Shown here: one piece after another, positions 11,855 to 56,677 of the stretch
Numbering within the stretch: position 1 is the first letter of the stretch
Layout: every line of letters starts with the position of its first letter
Source of the DNA: Candidatus Helarchaeota ASGARD archaeon Hel_GB_B
GTDB taxonomy: Archaea > Asgardarchaeota > Lokiarchaeia > Helarchaeales > HEL-GB-B
Reading direction: 5' to 3'
Length of the DNA stretch: 64,000 bases
Assembly (NCBI GenBank): GCA_005191425.1
Contig: SUPR01000001.1
Coordinates: 5,762-69,761 of the forward strand
The notes under the pieces: generated by a model
Database searches by the model: none
What the model saw: the letters and a program-made list of their open reading frames with translations, nothing else
Told to the model about the DNA's origin: nothing
Program-made: the position numbers and the translations under genes

Positions 11855-12820
11855 TTAATATAACTTCTCTAATTCAGTACCACATTTAGGACATCTATAT
11901 CTTGCAGGTTTTGGGACTTTATATTGAACATTACAATATCTACATATCATAGGATAACTCTTTTTTTCTTGTTGTTGTCTGGCTTGTTCTATGAGCTTAT
12001 TACAATAGTCGATTTGCTCTTGTAACCAAGTCATTCCATCTTCAAATTTGACTTTACTTGCATATTCATATGCTTGCTTAAATAGATTTAACGCTTCATG
12101 ATGATCCCCAGATTGTAATCTGGATAACGCTACATTTGAAAGCTTTTTATAATTTTCCAATGCTTTTAAATATGCTTGCTGGTCAAATGATTCTTGAGCC
12201 TCTACAGTTTCTCCCTGTTGATTTGCTTGCGATACTTGCGTCTGAGTTTGCGTTGCTGTAGACGCTGTGCTACTTATTGTCGGCATGCCAATGTCTTCTC
12301 GCTCACCTATTAATAATTTAGTTAATGCATAAAATACCTCGTTTACACTTTGCCCTGATTTTGCAGATGATTCAATATAACTAACCCCTCTTTGGGCTGC
12401 AAACTCCCGCGCCTCTTCCACTGACACTTCACGATCTGGTAAGTCGGCCTTATTTCCCACTAATACCCACGGAATATTACTGCCACAATTTGTGAATACC
12501 TCATTGAACCATGTATTAGATAAACTCTCAAAACTCTTACGATTCGTAATATCAAAAGCAAAGATCGCACCAGAAGCACCTTTATAGTAAAGTGGACGAA
12601 TATAAGCGAACCTTTCCTGCCCACCAGTGTCCCATATTTGTAATTTGACTTTCTTTCCATTAATTTCAATTGTTTTTATTGAGAAATCTACCCCAATTGT
12701 CATTTTATATTGGTCTCTAAAAATTCCTTGCGCAAAACGGGTAGTTAATGCTGTCTTACCTACACCACCTGATCCGATCACAATTATCTTAAATAAATAG
12801 TCAAAATCTCCATTTGTCAT
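11855..12820 (-). CDS. Rab-like small GTPase (Ras superfamily) with a C-terminal extension ending in a C4 zinc ribbon
   Basis: G1 GSGGVGKT, switch I TIGVDF (RabF1-like), G3 WDTGGQERF, G4 NKAD, G5 SAK; YYKGA (RabF4-like). The C-terminal ~120 aa ends in CRYCNVQYKVPKPARYRCPKCG. Confidence 0.8.
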   Translation of the reverse strand: MTNGDFDYLFKIIVIGSGGVGKTALTTRFAQGIFRDQYKMTIGVDFSIKTIEINGKKVKLQIWDTGGQERFAYIRPLYYKGASGAIFAFDITNRKSFESLSNTWFNEVFTNCGSNIPWVLVGNKADLPDREVSVEEAREFAAQRGVSYIESSAKSGQSVNEVFYALTKLLIGEREDIGMPTISSTASTATQTQTQVSQANQQGETVEAQESFDQQAYLKALENYKKLSNVALSRLQSGDHHEALNLFKQAYEYASKVKFEDGMTWLQEQIDYCNKLIEQARQQQEKKSYPMICRYCNVQYKVPKPARYRCPKCGTELEKLY

Positions 12821-46760: not shown

Positions 46761-49700
46761 TTAAACTCTTGTAATTTTGGTAGATGAAGCCATCCAAATG
46801 GGTCCAATTATTTCGTGAATTAACGCTACCAAAGTTTCTTGTTGAGATACTAATGCAGTTAATTGTGTTAGGTCGTATTTTTCAGAATATGGTGCAATTA
46901 ATACTTCTTCACCGTCTCTACCAACTGCAAATAGGTTCATCTCAGGTCTTTGCCTTATTTGTACATTTCCTAATTCTAGCAACTCTCTAACCTGGTCTTT
47001 TGCTTCGTTCAAGATACGAGATGCAACAATTATTCTTATTCTTCGACTAGCGGATTTAATAGTTTCTAGAGGCAGGTCACTAAAATCAGGAGCTACAATA
47101 GATACAGTTGATTTTGTTCTCATAAGAATGTCCCGGATATATTCTTTTATTGCCTCAACACCTACTAATGGCCAAGTAAGTTCGCCGGATTTCGCTAGTA
47201 TATTAGTAGTTTCCTGCCATACTGCTCTTAGAAGTTGACTTACTTTTAAGGTTTCACCTTCAGCTTCTCTGAATGTAAATGCCGCATCTTTATTAGTGTT
47301 TGTAAGTCGCTCTGTTAATATAGAATCGGTTTCATCTAATTTTGCAGCTAATTTTTCATTTAATGAATTTGCGTTTGATTCATAGTCAGTTTGGTGTTGG
47401 CTAGCTAATTGTAGTAAATCAGTTTCTAGTTTTGCAGCATCTGCTTGGAATCCTGCGGCATGGTTGGAAATTGTTTCTTTACATTCCTCATAAGTTTTGG
47501 TAGTCAATTCTTTAATTTGTGCTAAATATTTATTATCAATTTCGTTTATATCGTTTTTTATTTGTGAAAATCCTTCATTCATAGTATTAGATATTTGCTC
47601 TTGGACATCATTTGCCATTTTATTAACTCGTTCGTTATCATTGTTGACAAAATCTTTAATAGTATTTTTCATTTGATTTAATGCTTCGTGGCCACGGTTT
47701 TTAACATCATCTACTCGTTTAATTTCGGTCTGTACTATATTTGCGACATCATCTTTTTTCTCGTCTATCGATTTATTCATATTAGCTGTTATTTCATCTA
47801 ATTCTCCTAACTTATTATCATCAATTTCTTGAAGATTTTTCTTATGCTCCTGGATTATATTTGCAAGCAATGAAATAGATTTATTACGAATTTCATGTGA
47901 TTGTGATTCAACATTACCTACTCTTAAGTCTAATGCTTTATAAAATTCATCACGCATTGAATCAAGTTCGTTTTGATATTCTTTGATTCTATCATCTAGA
48001 GTATCAGAAAGAACTTGCTCCAATTTACTTGTATCTTCTTGTAAAAGTTTATTTTGGCCGGAAATCTTGGATAAAAATTCGTCTTTCAATTTATTTAGTA
48101 AGTCGCTGTATCTTTTTATGACATCATCTGATTTACTAACTATCGAGTCCTTCATTTTGTAAAAATCTAATTCTATTGCTTCTACTTGAGAATTAATTAT
48201 TTCTTGAGACTGGTCACCATATTTAGAAGCATTATCCTTGAACCAATTTAAGTTATTATTATTATATTTGTCAAAAACAGCAGATACATTTTCCTTTTTA
48301 GTATTTATCGATGAAATTTCGGAACTGATAATATCAGCAAGATTTTCAGTAGTATCGTTTGACCATTTGTCTAAAGATTCATTTACCTTATCTTGATAGT
48401 CTTTAATATTTACTTCTAACTCTTTAACTAAATTTTTTGATGTTTCATTTATGGTATTAATTAATTGTTCATTAGCCCCGCGTTCTTCCTTAATTTTTTC
48501 ATTTAATTTTCTAATAGCATTATCAATAATTTCCTTAATTTCAGGTCTGTCTTTACTATATTCTTTTAATTCATTTTCCAGTTCTTTTTCCCAGTCACGG
48601 AGATTATGAATTGTTTTTGTTATTTCCCCTGATGAAACATTTTTAATTGAGTCGACCTTGGTCTGAATTTCGTCATGTAAAGTTTTCGATAAAGATTTTA
48701 TCTTATTTTTTTCTTCAGATTTCAGATTTTTAATTGAATTATTTGCTTTTGATTTTAAATCATCCAAATTTTTGTTTAAATTAGAAATACTTGCATCTAA
48801 TTCTTGATTGAATTCACTCCTTGCGGAATTTATTTCATCTGTTAATTGAGCTAAACGCTCGTCTAAATTCGAAGTTAATGTTTTTTCCAAATCAGTTGAC
48901 CCGGCTTGAAGCCTTTTAATTTGACTTGTAAATTTGTCAAGAAATTCCTGTTGTATATCACCAACTAATTGCTTGAACCTTGAAATTAAATCATTTGTAA
49001 AATTTGCTACATCATTTGTAAATTGATAGAATTCGGTATCTCGTTTAGTAATTTCATTATTAAACAATTTTTCAGCAGTTTCACGAAAATTGCTGGCTCT
49101 ATTTTTAAACCATTCCATATGATTATTTTGTGAATTTTGAATTTCAGACCTTAATTCCTTATCTTTTTCCCAAGTAGCTTCAATTTCCTTTTTTATCATT
49201 TCTAAGAATTCGTCTGATAAATTTTTATGCCATTCATCATAGGCAGTGTAATTTTGATTGCGATTACTATTAATAATATCATTTACTCCTTTGACATATT
49301 CGACCATTATTCGATCAGTGAATTCATCAAATACGCCATCAATGCGAGTATTAAGTAGATTTAATCCTTCTACATTTTCGGCAGAGACTTTATCGAGAAT
49401 TTCATTGCCGTAATTGTCCAAGACATTATCAATATTATTATTTAAATTATTTAATTCATTTTTATGTTCATCGGCTGTAGTATCATGTATATTTTTAGTT
49501 TTTTGCATTAATTCATTATATCTATTTTCCAGGTCATTAGCCAAAGTGTCTTCATATTCATGAATTAATTTATTGTGGTCATCATTACGCTGATTAAAAT
49601 TGTTAGTTATCTCTTCTTTTCTCGATTCCACATCAGAATTTAATTTTATTACTTGATTTGTAATTAAATTAGAAATTCCATCTCTAGCATTAATTGTATC

Positions 49701-50132
49701 TTTGGCAAATTGTTCTAATTGAGTATTTATAGCCTCTGCTACTTGATCTTTAAGAGTTATGACCTCTTGCTTTAAGTCATTAATATGTTTATTAATGTTA
49801 GAATCGAAATCCTCTCGTTGTTTGATAGTTTTTTCTCTATATTGATCCAAAAATTGAGTAAAGGCAGAATAAGGGACGACTGGCATATATCTATTTATAT
49901 CTTTAGCTGCTGAACCTATTGCAACAGCAAGGTTATTATCTAAAAATTTTTGTATTGTATTTCTCGCTTCTTCCATTGAGATATTTGCCAATGCCGCTAA
50001 AGATGATTCAGTTATATATCCTTTTGCATATAATGCGACAAAGGCTCTTGCTTCAGCTTCTGTTAATGTAACACCTCGTTCTTTAAAAGTATCTATAATT
50101 ATTTGAAACATATTTTGGTTTTGTACACTCAT
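46761..50132 (-). CDS. Giant (1123 aa) coiled-coil protein with an N-terminal TrmB-like winged HTH and a ~170-aa globular C-terminal domain
   Basis: N-terminus FQIIIDTFKERGVTLTEAEARAFVALYAKGYITESSLAALANISMEEARNTIQKFL is a TrmB-type wHTH. About 850 aa of E/K/N/D-rich heptad-like sequence with no Walker motifs. The C-terminal domain is non-repetitive. Confidence 0.7.
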   Translation of the reverse strand: MSVQNQNMFQIIIDTFKERGVTLTEAEARAFVALYAKGYITESSLAALANISMEEARNTIQKFLDNNLAVAIGSAAKDINRYMPVVPYSAFTQFLDQYREKTIKQREDFDSNINKHINDLKQEVITLKDQVAEAINTQLEQFAKDTINARDGISNLITNQVIKLNSDVESRKEEITNNFNQRNDDHNKLIHEYEDTLANDLENRYNELMQKTKNIHDTTADEHKNELNNLNNNIDNVLDNYGNEILDKVSAENVEGLNLLNTRIDGVFDEFTDRIMVEYVKGVNDIINSNRNQNYTAYDEWHKNLSDEFLEMIKKEIEATWEKDKELRSEIQNSQNNHMEWFKNRASNFRETAEKLFNNEITKRDTEFYQFTNDVANFTNDLISRFKQLVGDIQQEFLDKFTSQIKRLQAGSTDLEKTLTSNLDERLAQLTDEINSARSEFNQELDASISNLNKNLDDLKSKANNSIKNLKSEEKNKIKSLSKTLHDEIQTKVDSIKNVSSGEITKTIHNLRDWEKELENELKEYSKDRPEIKEIIDNAIRKLNEKIKEERGANEQLINTINETSKNLVKELEVNIKDYQDKVNESLDKWSNDTTENLADIISSEISSINTKKENVSAVFDKYNNNNLNWFKDNASKYGDQSQEIINSQVEAIELDFYKMKDSIVSKSDDVIKRYSDLLNKLKDEFLSKISGQNKLLQEDTSKLEQVLSDTLDDRIKEYQNELDSMRDEFYKALDLRVGNVESQSHEIRNKSISLLANIIQEHKKNLQEIDDNKLGELDEITANMNKSIDEKKDDVANIVQTEIKRVDDVKNRGHEALNQMKNTIKDFVNNDNERVNKMANDVQEQISNTMNEGFSQIKNDINEIDNKYLAQIKELTTKTYEECKETISNHAAGFQADAAKLETDLLQLASQHQTDYESNANSLNEKLAAKLDETDSILTERLTNTNKDAAFTFREAEGETLKVSQLLRAVWQETTNILAKSGELTWPLVGVEAIKEYIRDILMRTKSTVSIVAPDFSDLPLETIKSASRRIRIIVASRILNEAKDQVRELLELGNVQIRQRPEMNLFAVGRDGEEVLIAPYSEKYDLTQLTALVSQQETLVALIHEIIGPIWMASSTKITRV

Positions 50133-50146
50133 TTTATATTTCCTCC

Positions 50147-52030
50147 TTATGAACTACCTCCTTCTATGGCTACTTTTGTTCTATTTAACTTTTCTACAAA
50201 ATCAGCCAACCCTAAATTTTGGAATTTTTGAATGGAATCCTCCAAAATGTCCTTGGCTTTATCTACTTGCCCTTGAATTGCATATACATTTGATAAGTTA
50301 GTATAAAATTGCCATGCATAAAAATATTCATTATTTGAAAAGAATGTCTTTGCTGCTTTTGTTAGTACATTTATTACTTCATTTGTGGCATTTATTTCTT
50401 CGAAATACTTTTTAGCTTGAGTATAGTTTGCTCTGGCTAATGGATATGCCTTGTCCTTAATGCAATCTTCGGCTTTTTCGACAAATAAATTAGCCAATTT
50501 ATTTATTAATTCTTTCACTTTTTCGGGTTCTCCTAAGCTTCTATTTACATCAATTGCATTAATGAGGACATCCCTGCCATAATCTAATAACCCTTTTTCG
50601 AGGAACTTTTCTGTAAAACTTTCCAAAATATTTGCGGCTTTTTCTTTTTCATTAACTTTTACGAGACTATCCCCTGCAAGTAATATAAACTTAAAAACTT
50701 CATTATAATATCCATAATTATAATAATTCATAGCTATATCATAATAACCATTTGCGATATGCTCAACTGCAGATACCAGTCCCGCTGTTAGAGAATCAGA
50801 TCTTAGACGTTCTAATTCTTCGAATTGAAAATCTTCCAATAATCTTCCATTTTCAGCCAAATTCATTGCAACTTTAATTAGACCTCTTGCTTGCGCATCT
50901 ACTGCAATATCACCCAAACTACTTCGTAAATAAATCCAAAAACTGTCTAATGTAATATAATAAACACTATCTTCTTTACTCAAATATTTTCCAATCATTT
51001 TTTCAAGTATTGGTTTGATATCTTCACTTTTTGCGCCAATCGAACGAGCTATTATATCAATATCTGCAAAATTTGCATTTTCCATTGCAAATGACTGTAA
51101 TATTTTTCTTTCGTCCTCAGTTAATTCTTTAAGTTCTCGTCCAAAACCTTCTTTAACTCCGCCTTCAGCTTTAAACCATACATCTTTACCTAGTTCTCTT
51201 GTATCGCCTCTATTTTCATACAACCATCCGCCATTATAAACTAAATAAAGAGGAATTCCACCACTATGTCTTAATAAATTCTCTTTTATCTCTTCACTAA
51301 ATTTAATTCCTGCTGCATCTGCTCTTTTATCAAGTAATTCTATTGCATCAGCATTATTTAAAGTTGGTAAACCTATTTCGTGAAAATCCTCTAATACATA
51401 ACGAACTTTTGGATAATACTTTTCCCAAACAGACATCAAAAAGAGAACAGGGAGGTTTGGATTTTTTACATCCGTTTTTATAGCGTCTACTATTGCTTTT
51501 AATACATCAAATGCATTGTCATGATTTAATATTATAAATCTTTCAACAAGATTAGAAACAATTAGAATACCTTTTTTATTGAATTTATTACCTTGAATAT
51601 TTTTAATAATTTTAGGTAATTTTTTAACAATTTTTTTCAAAAAAGAATCAATATACTTACTCATATCAGGGATTTCATAGCTGCTTTTTAAAAGCGGAGC
51701 TTTTTTACCTGGTTTTGTAATAGGTTTCTTTTTGTCCACGGGTTTCGTTATTTCATCTAATTCATTGCTTATTACATCGAAATAACCTTCAATATTTATC
51801 AATGGTACATCATATCTAATTACCAGAAAACCATTTGATGAAGCTATGGACTCGATTTGTTTTAAAAAACTTCTTCTACCAATTCCTTCGCGTCCATGTA
51901 ATATTAAGCCATGTGAAATATTTTCTCGGTCAGCTATTTTTTGCAAAATTCCTGAAAATTGATCTATTTCTCTTTTTCTTCCCACAAAGAATTTCGCTGG
52001 GCATGTTTCTAATTTAAATGGGTCCGTCAT
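50147..52030 (-). CDS. Arch-ATPase-like (PF01637-type) P-loop protein with a C-terminal TPR-like helical repeat region; the Walker A is degenerate
   Basis: FVGRKREIDQFSGIL...LILHGREGIGRRSFLKQIE aligns with the Arch_ATPase block FvGRe.El..L...vyGpRRvGKTsLl, but the Walker A Lys-Thr is replaced (GIGRRS). The C-terminal ~250 aa has TPR/helical repeats (YYNYGYYNEVF..., AWQFYTNLSNVYAIQGQVDKA). Confidence 0.6.
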   Translation of the reverse strand: MTDPFKLETCPAKFFVGRKREIDQFSGILQKIADRENISHGLILHGREGIGRRSFLKQIESIASSNGFLVIRYDVPLINIEGYFDVISNELDEITKPVDKKKPITKPGKKAPLLKSSYEIPDMSKYIDSFLKKIVKKLPKIIKNIQGNKFNKKGILIVSNLVERFIILNHDNAFDVLKAIVDAIKTDVKNPNLPVLFLMSVWEKYYPKVRYVLEDFHEIGLPTLNNADAIELLDKRADAAGIKFSEEIKENLLRHSGGIPLYLVYNGGWLYENRGDTRELGKDVWFKAEGGVKEGFGRELKELTEDERKILQSFAMENANFADIDIIARSIGAKSEDIKPILEKMIGKYLSKEDSVYYITLDSFWIYLRSSLGDIAVDAQARGLIKVAMNLAENGRLLEDFQFEELERLRSDSLTAGLVSAVEHIANGYYDIAMNYYNYGYYNEVFKFILLAGDSLVKVNEKEKAANILESFTEKFLEKGLLDYGRDVLINAIDVNRSLGEPEKVKELINKLANLFVEKAEDCIKDKAYPLARANYTQAKKYFEEINATNEVINVLTKAAKTFFSNNEYFYAWQFYTNLSNVYAIQGQVDKAKDILEDSIQKFQNLGLADFVEKLNRTKVAIEGGSS

Positions 52031-54971: not shown

Positions 54972-55475
54972 ATGCAAGTCTATATTACAACACTTGGGCG
55001 ATCTGAATGGGCAGTTATCAATAGTTATTATGCAGTTGTTAAAAATAAGAGATATTACCCAGATTTAATTTATATCATAACTGAAGATTTGTTCCAAGAT
55101 AGAATTCACAAGATAATAGATGGTCTAAATATCATTTCAAATGAGTTTGGATTTAATCCAGAATATAAATTGACAATTGTAAAAGAATCCGAGTTTTCTG
55201 ATGCAAAGAATAAAATCGATATAATCGCAAAAGATTTAGAAAATTCTAATAATATGATTGCCGTAGATATTACATCTGGTCGAAAAGTATTAGTAATTAA
55301 TATTCTCTTATTAATATTCTATTCAAAAATAAAAGTTCAACATATTTTTTATTTAGCAATAAAGACAATTAAAGGGGTTAATAAACCATATGAAATGATA
55401 CCAATTCAAATTCAATCATTAAGAGATTTTATCCAAGAAATTAATGAGGTGAAAAATAGACCAAATGGCACATGA
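54972..55475 (+). CDS. CARF-domain protein (cyclic-oligoadenylate sensor-like Rossmann domain), standalone
   Basis: MQVYITTLGRSEWAV (compare the Csm6/Csx1 TLGTS loop) and AVDITSGRKVLVI (compare the CARF D-[IL]-T-[SH]-G-[TF]-[KR] motif). Length 167 aa. Confidence 0.55.
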   Translation: MQVYITTLGRSEWAVINSYYAVVKNKRYYPDLIYIITEDLFQDRIHKIIDGLNIISNEFGFNPEYKLTIVKESEFSDAKNKIDIIAKDLENSNNMIAVDITSGRKVLVINILLLIFYSKIKVQHIFYLAIKTIKGVNKPYEMIPIQIQSLRDFIQEINEVKNRPNGT

Positions 55476-56472
55476 AACAATAATTAATCCCCCAGAATTA
55501 CAAATTTTATTGAACAAATTTGACGACTATTCGATATCATTTCCTGCTTTTTCTAAAGATACAATTTTAACTGCAACACCATTTAATGATTGTTATAAAA
55601 TAAAAGTAAATGATAATTATTTTGATTCCGATCGAGATGGTCTTAACATTTTTAACGATATTTATTATTCAGAAATACCAAATAATCAAGATTTTCTAGA
55701 ATGTCTCTTGTCAAGTAATTGTATTACCTATCCTAACGTGGGAGATTTTGAGTATATAAGAAAATCATATAAAAATATCCATAAAAAGGTATATTTTGCT
55801 GTGGATACAAATATTCTCTATCATAGGTTTATCTCTTTCTCTAAATTAAAAGAAGAGAAAATCGTATTAGCACCTACCATTAAAGATGAAATAGAGTCAT
55901 CAATAAATTATAAATATAATAGGGAGGAAATTAATGAAATTAAAAAAATTGTAAGATATAACAAAAATTTATTTGATGAATTTAGAAATAGACGCATAAA
56001 AAAGTCAAGAAAGGCAGCATATCTTGCATTAAATGAGCTAAAACTTTTAAATATCCTTAATATAGACAGCGTAAAAATAGAGCAAGAAAATTATGAACAA
56101 AATGATTTAAAAATTGTTAGAGAGTTAAAAGCTTTTGAAAATGACTCAGGAGCGTTGGTAGTATTATTAACAGCAGATAGAGCAATGGTAGATTTCTGCA
56201 GAATAGAGTCCTTAGATTATTTTAATTTTGATTATCCAAACACATTTAATATAAATACATGTTCGGCACAACAATTTAGGTCTTTAATTTTTAATTTAGC
56301 CGTTGTTTTTGGATTTATAAAATTAAATTCGACAATAATATTCGGCGAATTTTCAGGAAAACACGAGTTAGACAATTTGAAAATTAGATTTTTAAACAAA
56401 AACTTGTATAATAAATTCGAAAAAGATTTAAGCATCTGCCGGAAGTTAGAAAAACTAAATTTTGATTTTTAA
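55465..56472 (+). CDS. PIN-domain nuclease with a ~110-aa N-terminal domain of unknown function; overlaps the CARF gene by 11 nt
   Basis: VYFAVDTNILYHRF (first Asp), PTIKDEIE (Glu), VVLLTADRAMVDF (third Asp), ESLDYF; the spacing fits the PIN fold. Confidence 0.5.
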   Translation: MAHETIINPPELQILLNKFDDYSISFPAFSKDTILTATPFNDCYKIKVNDNYFDSDRDGLNIFNDIYYSEIPNNQDFLECLLSSNCITYPNVGDFEYIRKSYKNIHKKVYFAVDTNILYHRFISFSKLKEEKIVLAPTIKDEIESSINYKYNREEINEIKKIVRYNKNLFDEFRNRRIKKSRKAAYLALNELKLLNILNIDSVKIEQENYEQNDLKIVRELKAFENDSGALVVLLTADRAMVDFCRIESLDYFNFDYPNTFNINTCSAQQFRSLIFNLAVVFGFIKLNSTIIFGEFSGKHELDNLKIRFLNKNLYNKFEKDLSICRKLEKLNFDF

Positions 56473-56677
56473 AAATAATTTAAAACGAAATAAAAGTTCA
56501 TTTTTTACTAATTATTATTTTTTTATATTAATTTTATAGAATTTATAGAATTTTTATAATCTATATAAATTTTGAAATCTTTAACAAATTAAGAATTTTA
56601 TATGGTAAACTTTTTAAAAGTTTATAGTTTTCAAAACTTGAAAAAAATGGTGTTGTCATTTATGAAAAGGTGTCATA

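Follow-up and report, generated by a model that had tools for sequence, protein, structure and literature searches.

A 64-kb stretch of contig SUPR01000001.1 from the Helarchaeota archaeon Hel_GB_B (64,000 nucleotides (nt), hereafter the window) carries two overlapping genes, one for a 167-amino-acid (aa) CARF-domain sensor protein (protein 1) and one for a 335-aa PIN-domain nuclease (protein 2). The two genes are a genuine two-gene operon in this Asgard archaeon and, judged by homology, the pair is the split form of an effector family in which CARF and PIN are fused. The Helarchaeota pair is an Asgard member of a known, catalogued family and not a new kind of system. Our preferred reading, to which we assign a probability of about 0.55, is that the pair constitutes a translationally coupled operon for a two-subunit ligand-gated RNase, the ligand most likely being cyclic tetra-adenylate (cA4) made by a type III Cas10 encoded elsewhere. 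The gene layout, in window positions, is as follows.

54972..55475, + strand: CARF_m1-type standalone CARF sensor gene, 167 aa, ATG start, TGA stop at 55473-55475
55465..56472, + strand: PIN-domain nuclease partner gene, 335 aa, three domains, ATG at 55465-55467
55465..55475, + strand: 11-nt overlap between the CARF stop and the PIN start, read directly from the sequence

The two open reading frames (ORFs) and their overlap lie exactly where an earlier reading of this DNA, made from the letters alone (the sequence-only reading), had placed them. The overlap is predicted to couple translation of the two genes. In addition, a Shine-Dalgarno-like GAGGTGA is read directly at 55446-55452, 12 nt 5' of the PIN ATG.

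The split arrangement is widespread among archaea. Homologs of the PIN protein, at least 120 in number and about 325-345 aa long, were found in Asgard archaea, Archaeoglobi, Thermococci, Methanomicrobia and MSBL1, and no relatives were found on viral contigs. A scan of one genome per species yielded 113 related loci, 80 of which were kept and combined with five further contigs to give 85 loci. A CARF_m1 gene lies directly upstream on the same strand in 79 of the 85, and the six exceptions are contig-end cuts or short paralogs. The genes overlap by 1-32 nt in 71 of the 79 pairs (by 4 nt in 38), six pairs have a gap of 2-19 nt, and two are outliers; the median lengths over the 79 pairs are 163 aa for CARF and 335 aa for PIN. 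The reading frames of the two ORFs differ, both here and in each of the 79 pairs, and no fused CARF-PIN form was present among the matches listed (120 PIN and 120 CARF). Meanwhile, pairwise identities of the CARF and PIN proteins correlate closely (r=0.94), with a mean of 0.50 for both. The sequence-only reading had allowed for a frameshift that divides one known fused gene; since the two-gene layout with overlapping junctions is kept in 79 loci of at least eight archaeal classes, a frameshift or pseudogene origin of the split is ruled out. ORFs of about 500 aa in Methanoculleus were also rejected as fusions, being long open frames in another reading frame. The split thus appears to be ancestral to a large family rather than an error, and on this comparison CARF and PIN are a near-obligate, co-inherited pair. 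The pairing, the overlapping junctions and the co-divergence argue for one functional unit.

Both halves of the pair map onto fused proteins. On the PADLOC model of the fused form, 'CARF_m1--CARF_PIN' (PDLC01973, 465 positions), protein 1 occupies positions 1-154 and residues 75-307 of protein 2 occupy positions 228-451, so that 73 positions of the model remain for residues 1-74 of protein 2. The N-terminal domain of protein 2 therefore sits where the fused proteins have their inter-domain linker region. The sequence-only reading had described an extra N-terminal domain; the domain is present, but it takes the place of the linker of fused CARF-PIN proteins and in that sense is not extra. Homology to the fused effectors (9JXW/SiRe_0806; PDLC01973, PDLC01068) covers both the CARF part and the linker-PIN part, and 9JXW (SiRe_0806) is the best non-artefact sequence-profile match of protein 1 and its rank 5 match by Foldseek. 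CARF and PIN are in one chain in SiRe_0806 (Sulfolobus islandicus, PDB 9JXW), ST0035 and Msed_1167, whereas they are separate here and in all 79 pairs, and identity to the fused Sulfolobales proteins is low (17-21%). [quoted passage not shown] No publication on 9JXW/SiRe_0806 was found in the literature searched.

Protein 1 is a CARF domain and a member of the CARF_m1 clade. It matches the PADLOC profile 'CARF_m1--CARF' (PDLC01971) with an expect value (E) of 2.3e-53, residues 1-158 aligning to profile positions 1-155 of 156, and Pfam Csa3_N at 30.3 bits (gathering cutoff 27). NCBIfam and PHROGs gave zero matches for protein 1 or protein 2, and single-sequence searches of the PDB with either protein returned nothing useful. 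An AlphaFold2 (AF2) monomer model of protein 1, built from 78 homologs, has a predicted local distance difference test score (pLDDT) of 89.4 and a six-stranded Rossmann-like topology (strands 2-8, 32-38, 64-70, 95-99, 122-130 and 148-152), strands 5 and 6 being joined by a long loop. Every one of its best 50 PDB matches by Foldseek is a CARF protein, many solved with cA4 or cyclic hexa-adenylate (cA6) bound, and the matches include Can2, Cam1, SiRe_0806, TtCsm6, Csa3, Cad1, Card1, Sso2081 and Cdn1. CARF domains have been defined by a six-stranded Rossmann-like core with strands 5 and 6 as a hairpin, S/T after strand 1, and [DN]X[ST]XXX[RK] directly after strand 4 (PMC4012209); all three features of sequence and fold are found in protein 1, the two motifs being located as follows.

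54993..55004, + strand: CARF motif I, L8-G9-R10-S11 (in T7-L-G-R-S11), directly after strand 1, with the S/T residue of the definition
55266..55286, + strand: CARF motif II, D99-I-T101-S-G103-R104-K105, directly after strand 4, fitting [DN]X[ST]XXX[RK]

Across 78 sequences, G9 of motif I is invariant and L8, R10 and S11 are at least 90% conserved; T101, G103 and K105 of motif II are invariant and D99 and R104 are at least 90% conserved; Y127 is likewise invariant. TLGRS and DITSGRK, which the sequence-only reading had singled out as CARF hallmarks, are thus both present and invariant or at least 90% conserved, and together with the AF2/Foldseek matches the invariant pocket motifs identify a CARF domain rather than a generic Rossmann-fold protein. 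The loop between strands 5 and 6 (residues 138-147, window 55383-55412) contains an invariant K-P-Y-x-M-I-P motif (P139, M142, I143, P144), and nowhere is the monomer model less confident than in this loop (block pLDDT 64-69). A loop so conserved, yet modelled with low confidence, would fit a partner-binding or ligand-lid surface.

The PDB profile search of protein 1 also returned TAL-effector matches, which were rejected as artefacts, being sums of insignificant repeat matches over one helical segment that vanished on masking. With this segment masked, the best PDB matches are the cA4 ring nucleases Sso2081 and Sis0455 over residues 7-125, L-G-R-S11 aligning with L-G-T-S11 of Sso2081 and D-I-T-S-G-R104-K105 with D-I-T-G-G-R105-K106. 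These Crn1 enzymes are standalone and cA4-specific, and they resemble protein 1 in size, fold and the LG.S and DIT.GRK motifs; S11 of Sso2081 we take to be catalytic. One might therefore read protein 1 as mainly a ring nuclease of the Crn1 kind, which would end the signal by degrading cA4, the PIN protein being functionally separate or only loosely linked. Its standalone size of about 160 aa is that of Crn1, S11 and R104-K105 fall on S11 and R105-K106 of Sso2081, Y127 is invariant, and the 2014 census of CARF proteins lists the family as CARF-only, 'no_toxin'. We nevertheless regard this as improbable, because the PIN gene is an almost constant partner whose junction with the CARF gene overlaps and whose divergence follows that of CARF, which favours one unit, because both halves map onto one fused protein family, and because ring nucleases normally lie in type III loci, where the pair does not. 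Moreover, the Crn1 match is weak (E=0.036) and confined to motifs common to many CARFs; the low overall similarity (E about 0.04), the invariant K-P-Y-x-M-I-P loop and the pairing with PIN set this family apart from Crn1.

Protein 2 matches Pfam PIN_4 (PF13638) at 23.6 bits (cutoff 21.9) over residues 113-242, so that profile searches, which the sequence-only reading had named as a check, support both the CARF assignment (Csa3_N, CARF_m1) and the PIN assignment with matches that are significant or above cutoff. The AF2 model of protein 2 (pLDDT 94.2, predicted template modelling score 0.92) has three domains.

55465..55764, + strand: N-terminal alpha/beta domain, residues 1-100, with a conserved E11-L-Q-I-L-L-N17 helix
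55777..56244, + strand: PIN catalytic core, residues 105-260, with acidic D114, E142, D214 and D238
56257..56469, + strand: C-terminal alpha/beta domain, residues 265-335, conserved and confidently modelled

The PIN motifs V113-D-T-N116, D141-E-I-E144 and L235-T-A-D-R239, pointed out from the letters as VDTN, DEIE and LTADR, are present, and all four acidic residues D114, E142, D214 and D238 are invariant and located on a PIN fold. The PIN domain had been assigned to the C-terminal half of the protein; the assignment as PIN stands, but the core is central (about 105-260), between the N-terminal domain (1-100) and the C-terminal domain (265-335). Within the C-terminal domain, which the fused CARF_PIN profiles cover in part (to residue 313), G283 and E295 are invariant and G294 and K299 are at least 90% conserved. 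Of the residues in the N-terminal domain, E11, L12, Q13 and L15 are conserved to at least 90% and N17 without exception. A search with the N-terminal domain alone retrieves only this PIN family and low-complexity matches, and no other architecture. In two short PIN paralogs of Archaeoglobus (L046 and L083), residues 1 to about 72-97 are missing, and so is the CARF gene; this joint absence hints, indirectly, that the N-terminal domain may be the element that couples the nuclease to CARF. Behind each of these paralogs (L046:623-1429, 268 aa; L083:4597-5313, 238 aa) comes an overlapping gene, unannotated and common to both loci (L046:1413-1829, L083:5297-5944), with a HAD gene about 600 nt downstream.

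The order of the two genes recalls VapBC operons, in which a small upstream gene likewise overlaps a downstream PIN-nuclease gene. The pair could then be a toxin-antitoxin-like module, the small CARF protein being an antitoxin that holds the PIN toxin inactive with no small-molecule signal. The vapBC-like order, the overlaps of 4-nt type and the PIN nuclease itself are in keeping with this, and toxin parallels were drawn both in the sequence-only reading and in the literature (PMC4012209). However, VapBC combines a DNA-binding antitoxin with a VapC of about 130 aa, whereas here the upstream protein has neither a DNA-binding domain nor an antitoxin fold but consists of a CARF domain whose ligand pocket is invariant, and the downstream protein is a 335-aa three-domain PIN_4 protein. 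An antitoxin-only role would leave the invariant conservation of the pocket unexplained without a ligand. In addition, the pair typically occurs once per locus, its synteny is stable and there are zero viral copies, unlike in mobile toxin-antitoxin modules. This explanation is very improbable in our view; like that of a ring nuclease only, it is less likely than the two discussed below.

According to the preferred reading, the 167-aa CARF protein would be a homodimer, as presumed from other CARFs, whose pocket, composed of L-G-R-S11 and D-I-T-S-G-R-K105, would bind a nucleotide second messenger. Since the pocket has the motifs of cA4-binding CARFs, cA4 would be the most likely ligand, its source being the Cas10 of a type III CRISPR system that lies in another part of the genome. 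The CARF protein would dock non-covalently on the N-terminal domain of its 335-aa partner, and we infer that ligand binding would activate, rather than inhibit, the Mg-dependent PIN site (D114/E142/D214/D238), so that RNA, the presumed substrate, would be cut and the infected cell slowed. The CARF pocket may also degrade the ligand and thereby limit the response. Control of a nuclease by a CARF sensor is a logic shared with Csm6/Csx1 (CARF-HEPN) and Can2/Card1 (CARF-nuclease), and the CARF folds of TtCsm6, Can2 and Card1 match that of protein 1; in contrast to those effectors, which carry HEPN or PD-D/ExK nucleases, the nuclease here is PIN, on a separate chain and outside cas loci.

The genomic surroundings of the pair were compared in ten Pfam-annotated contexts, as follows.

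window: Helarchaeota, Pfam-annotated context
L003: second Helarchaeota contig, Pfam-annotated context
L001: Thermococcus litoralis, Pfam-annotated context
L002: second T. litoralis-type contig, Pfam-annotated context
L004: Methanoculleus sp. 7T, Pfam-annotated context
L005: Archaeoglobus fulgidus metagenome contig, Pfam-annotated context
L086: Sigynarchaeota, Pfam-annotated context
L087: 245-kb contig, Pfam-annotated context
L088: Thermococcus sp. Bubb.Bath, Pfam-annotated context
L089: Thermococcus onnurineus NA1, Pfam-annotated context

The neighbourhoods are stable within lineages. An excisionase-type helix-turn-helix (HTH) gene lies upstream of the pair in 22 of 32 Methanomicrobia loci, and in 15 of 21 Thermococci loci the pair is immediately preceded, on its own strand, by a gene for a metal-binding DUF2284 protein. 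In 26 loci, the PIN gene is directly followed, on the same strand, by a gene for a generic HAD-IA hydrolase. These loci belong to Archaeoglobi, Methanomicrobia, Hadarchaeota, Nitrososphaerota and Thermoproteota, and they suggest that CARF, PIN and HAD constitute an operon of three genes there; no such gene is present downstream in Thermococci, Asgard archaea or the window. The HAD-IA genes (L004:10972-11667, L087:10990-11676, L005:6128-6889 and 23 more) often overlap the PIN stop by 17 or 37 nt. The HTH gene of Methanomicrobia (e.g. L004:8575-9180, - strand) is divergent and encodes a 200-aa protein of the excisionase family TIGR01764 (DUF6573/HTH_17); it could be a local regulator or the remnant of an integrated element. 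Among Thermococci, the DUF2284 genes are located at L001:9065-9526, L088:9080-9541 and L089:9081-9542; the one in L088 overlaps the CARF start by 4 nt, and in L089 (T. onnurineus) an extra 150-aa gene stands between DUF2284 and the CARF gene.

Several observations weigh against a ligand supplied by Cas10. There is no cas or cyclase gene in the window, no Cas10, Csm or Cmr gene in the ten Pfam-annotated contexts, and no CRISPR array in 1.3 Mb of flanking sequence around the 85 loci, whereas a type III ancillary effector would be expected in or beside a type III cas cassette or array. The genus-level synteny in Methanomicrobia and Thermococci makes the pair look more like a core gene than a defence-island gene. 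The family is represented in Thermococcus kodakarensis by TK1203, and the cas genes of this species form one cluster, restricted to types I-A and I-B (PMC3737340); TK1203 is therefore a counter-example to co-occurrence with Cas10, for the CARF half only, as its PIN neighbour is unconfirmed, and nothing on TK1202-TK1204 was found in the literature searched. Finally, the CARF-PIN protein ST0035 gave a weak cross-link to cA4 and was not activated by it (PMC6546367); ST0035 is the only tested CARF-PIN effector found in the literature searched, and none with demonstrated ligand activation was found there.

These observations raise the possibility of a CRISPR-independent module, in which the same CARF-gated PIN RNase would respond to a ligand that does not come from Cas10 and would serve stress or RNA-turnover control. 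Such a ligand might be a metabolite, another alarmone of nucleotide type or an RNA terminus bearing a 2',3'-cyclic phosphate, and in many lineages the co-transcribed HAD phosphatase would be a partner. The absence of type III genes and arrays beside the pair in the window, the ten contexts and the flanks speaks for such a module, as do the T. kodakarensis genome, which carries TK1203 with no type III system, the lineage-stable HTH and DUF2284 neighbourhoods, the HAD-IA hydrolase downstream in five classes, and the zero copies on viral contigs. There is also a precedent in RtcR, whose CARF senses tRNA fragments and not cyclic oligoadenylates (PMC7790460). However, the pocket motifs LG.S and DIT.GRK are those of cA4-binding CARFs and are identical in Sso2081, while RtcR-type CARFs mostly lack a basic residue after strand 4. 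Moreover, the fused CARF-PIN relatives in Sulfolobales are tied to type III loci (Msed_1167 cluster), the case of T. kodakarensis is weakened by the unconfirmed PIN gene, and defence genes adjoin the pair in some lineages. For example, in Archaeoglobi the pair has McrB-like AAA_5 ATPases (L008:4934-7171, L010:6307-8148, L013:5930-8173) or a McrBC-domain gene (L005:274-1563) 2-4 kb upstream; such restriction-type surroundings contrast with the housekeeping contexts of other lineages. Likewise, in Sigynarchaeota (L086:1-9284) four restriction-modification genes of N6-methylase, Eco57I or MmeI type and an RNase H-like gene immediately precede the pair. A CRISPR-independent module is therefore a tentative alternative, clearly less probable than the preferred reading; that the family is an ancient, mostly vertically inherited archaeal signalling RNase, accompanied by a HAD phosphatase in many lineages and responding to an endogenous nucleotide or RNA-end signal, is possible to the same limited degree.

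The only cas genes met near any copy of the pair are cas1-cas2-cas4-cas3 of L088 (L088:1-3779; adaptation and type I), about 6 kb upstream with unrelated genes between. Four array candidates detected by k-mers in the flanks proved not to be CRISPR, being 45-nt or 57-nt tandem repeats or repeats within coding sequence; the intergenic 45-nt tandem repeat of Methanoculleus sp. 7T (L004:860-1254), about 8 kb from the pair, has 8.7 copies with 90% identity and is not CRISPR either. For the 106 flank ORF representatives searched with PADLOC in alignment mode, the best 25 of 107 matched families were inspected, so that the absence of cas models from them is inconclusive. PADLOC gave strong pAgo/PIWI matches, with E as low as 4e-63, for two flank ORF clusters. 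When ten large flank ORFs were scanned with Pfam, the McrB-like AAA_5 ATPases were recovered but the pAgo matches were not located.

The window itself has housekeeping surroundings, with topoisomerase VI A and B, a Ras-family GTPase and coenzyme A biosynthesis genes identified by Pfam. In agreement with the sequence-only reading, which had reported no cas gene, cyclase or array in it, none of the Cas, Csm, Cmr or CD-NTase models is in the complete PADLOC list for the 50 window ORFs that are 90 aa or longer, and no CRISPR-like repeats were found in the whole 64 kb; the list comprises 23 weak families in all, which fit housekeeping homologs. Rfam gave no matches in the window, and the intergenic regions flanking the pair contain AT-rich low-complexity repeats only. 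The GC content of the pair (25.7%) is unremarkable beside that of the window (28.5%) and gives no sign of recent transfer. Oligo-T tracts serve transcription termination in archaea, and those behind the PIN gene are a possible terminator:

56501..56524, + strand: oligo-T tracts 3' of the PIN stop (T6 at 56501-56506, T7 at 56518-56524), by direct reading

On the opposite strand, 5' of the pair (46761-52030, - strand), a 1123-aa protein with apolipoprotein-like helical repeats (sub-threshold Pfam matches) is encoded, adjoined by a 627-aa protein whose C-terminus is SNAP/TPR-like and which has a P-loop-like motif. Farther away (11855-12820, - strand), a 321-aa protein, which opens with the P-loop of a Rab/Ras-like GTPase (KIIVIGSGGVGKT), probably accounts for the Pfam Ras match of the window (E=9.7e-57); Rab/Ras-like GTPases are common in Asgard archaea.

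Much of the family was already on record, and its novelty had been overestimated in the sequence-only reading: the CARF half is in the 2014 census, PADLOC has models for the standalone and the PIN-fused forms, and a fused homolog has been solved (9JXW). Two CARF families fused to PIN were reported in 2014, and cluster 10 of the same census, 'pfam09670_only_CARF', lists OCC_10895, TK1203, TON_0464, TGAM_1329, TSIB_1996, TERMP_00825 and BN140_1264, all flagged 'no_toxin' (PMC4012209). Cluster 10 is the same family as protein 1. The CARF ORF that overlaps the PIN gene OCC_10890 in T. litoralis (L001) has 159 aa and answers to the census entry OCC_10895, likewise of 159 aa, and the CARF gene of L089 is TON_0464, with a 334-aa gene behind it. 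The census thus recorded the cluster without an effector, whereas our comparison places a near-obligate PIN partner immediately downstream; the CARF family was catalogued in 2014 and its PIN partner was missed. A later classification is reflected in the PADLOC model names, in which CARF_m1 groups standalone (PDLC01971/01972) and PIN-fused (PDLC01973) forms. The CARF_m1 clade names reportedly go back to Makarova et al. 2020, in Nucleic Acids Research (NAR).

The window alone adds one Helarchaeota member to a catalogued family. The view of the family is more useful: a CARF protein held to be 'effector-less' in 2014 has a near-obligate PIN partner, and the pair is the split equivalent of a solved fused protein. 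That the family consistently lies outside CRISPR loci and occurs in a genome whose systems are of type I only bears on whether CARF signalling works without Cas10, a question that attaches to the family as a whole and not to the window. Family members are carried by T. kodakarensis and T. onnurineus, which are genetically manipulable, and this tractability would open the question to experiment. If true, the reading of an endogenous signal would mean that CARF signalling operates outside CRISPR immunity, even in Asgard archaea and in T. kodakarensis, which lacks type III systems.

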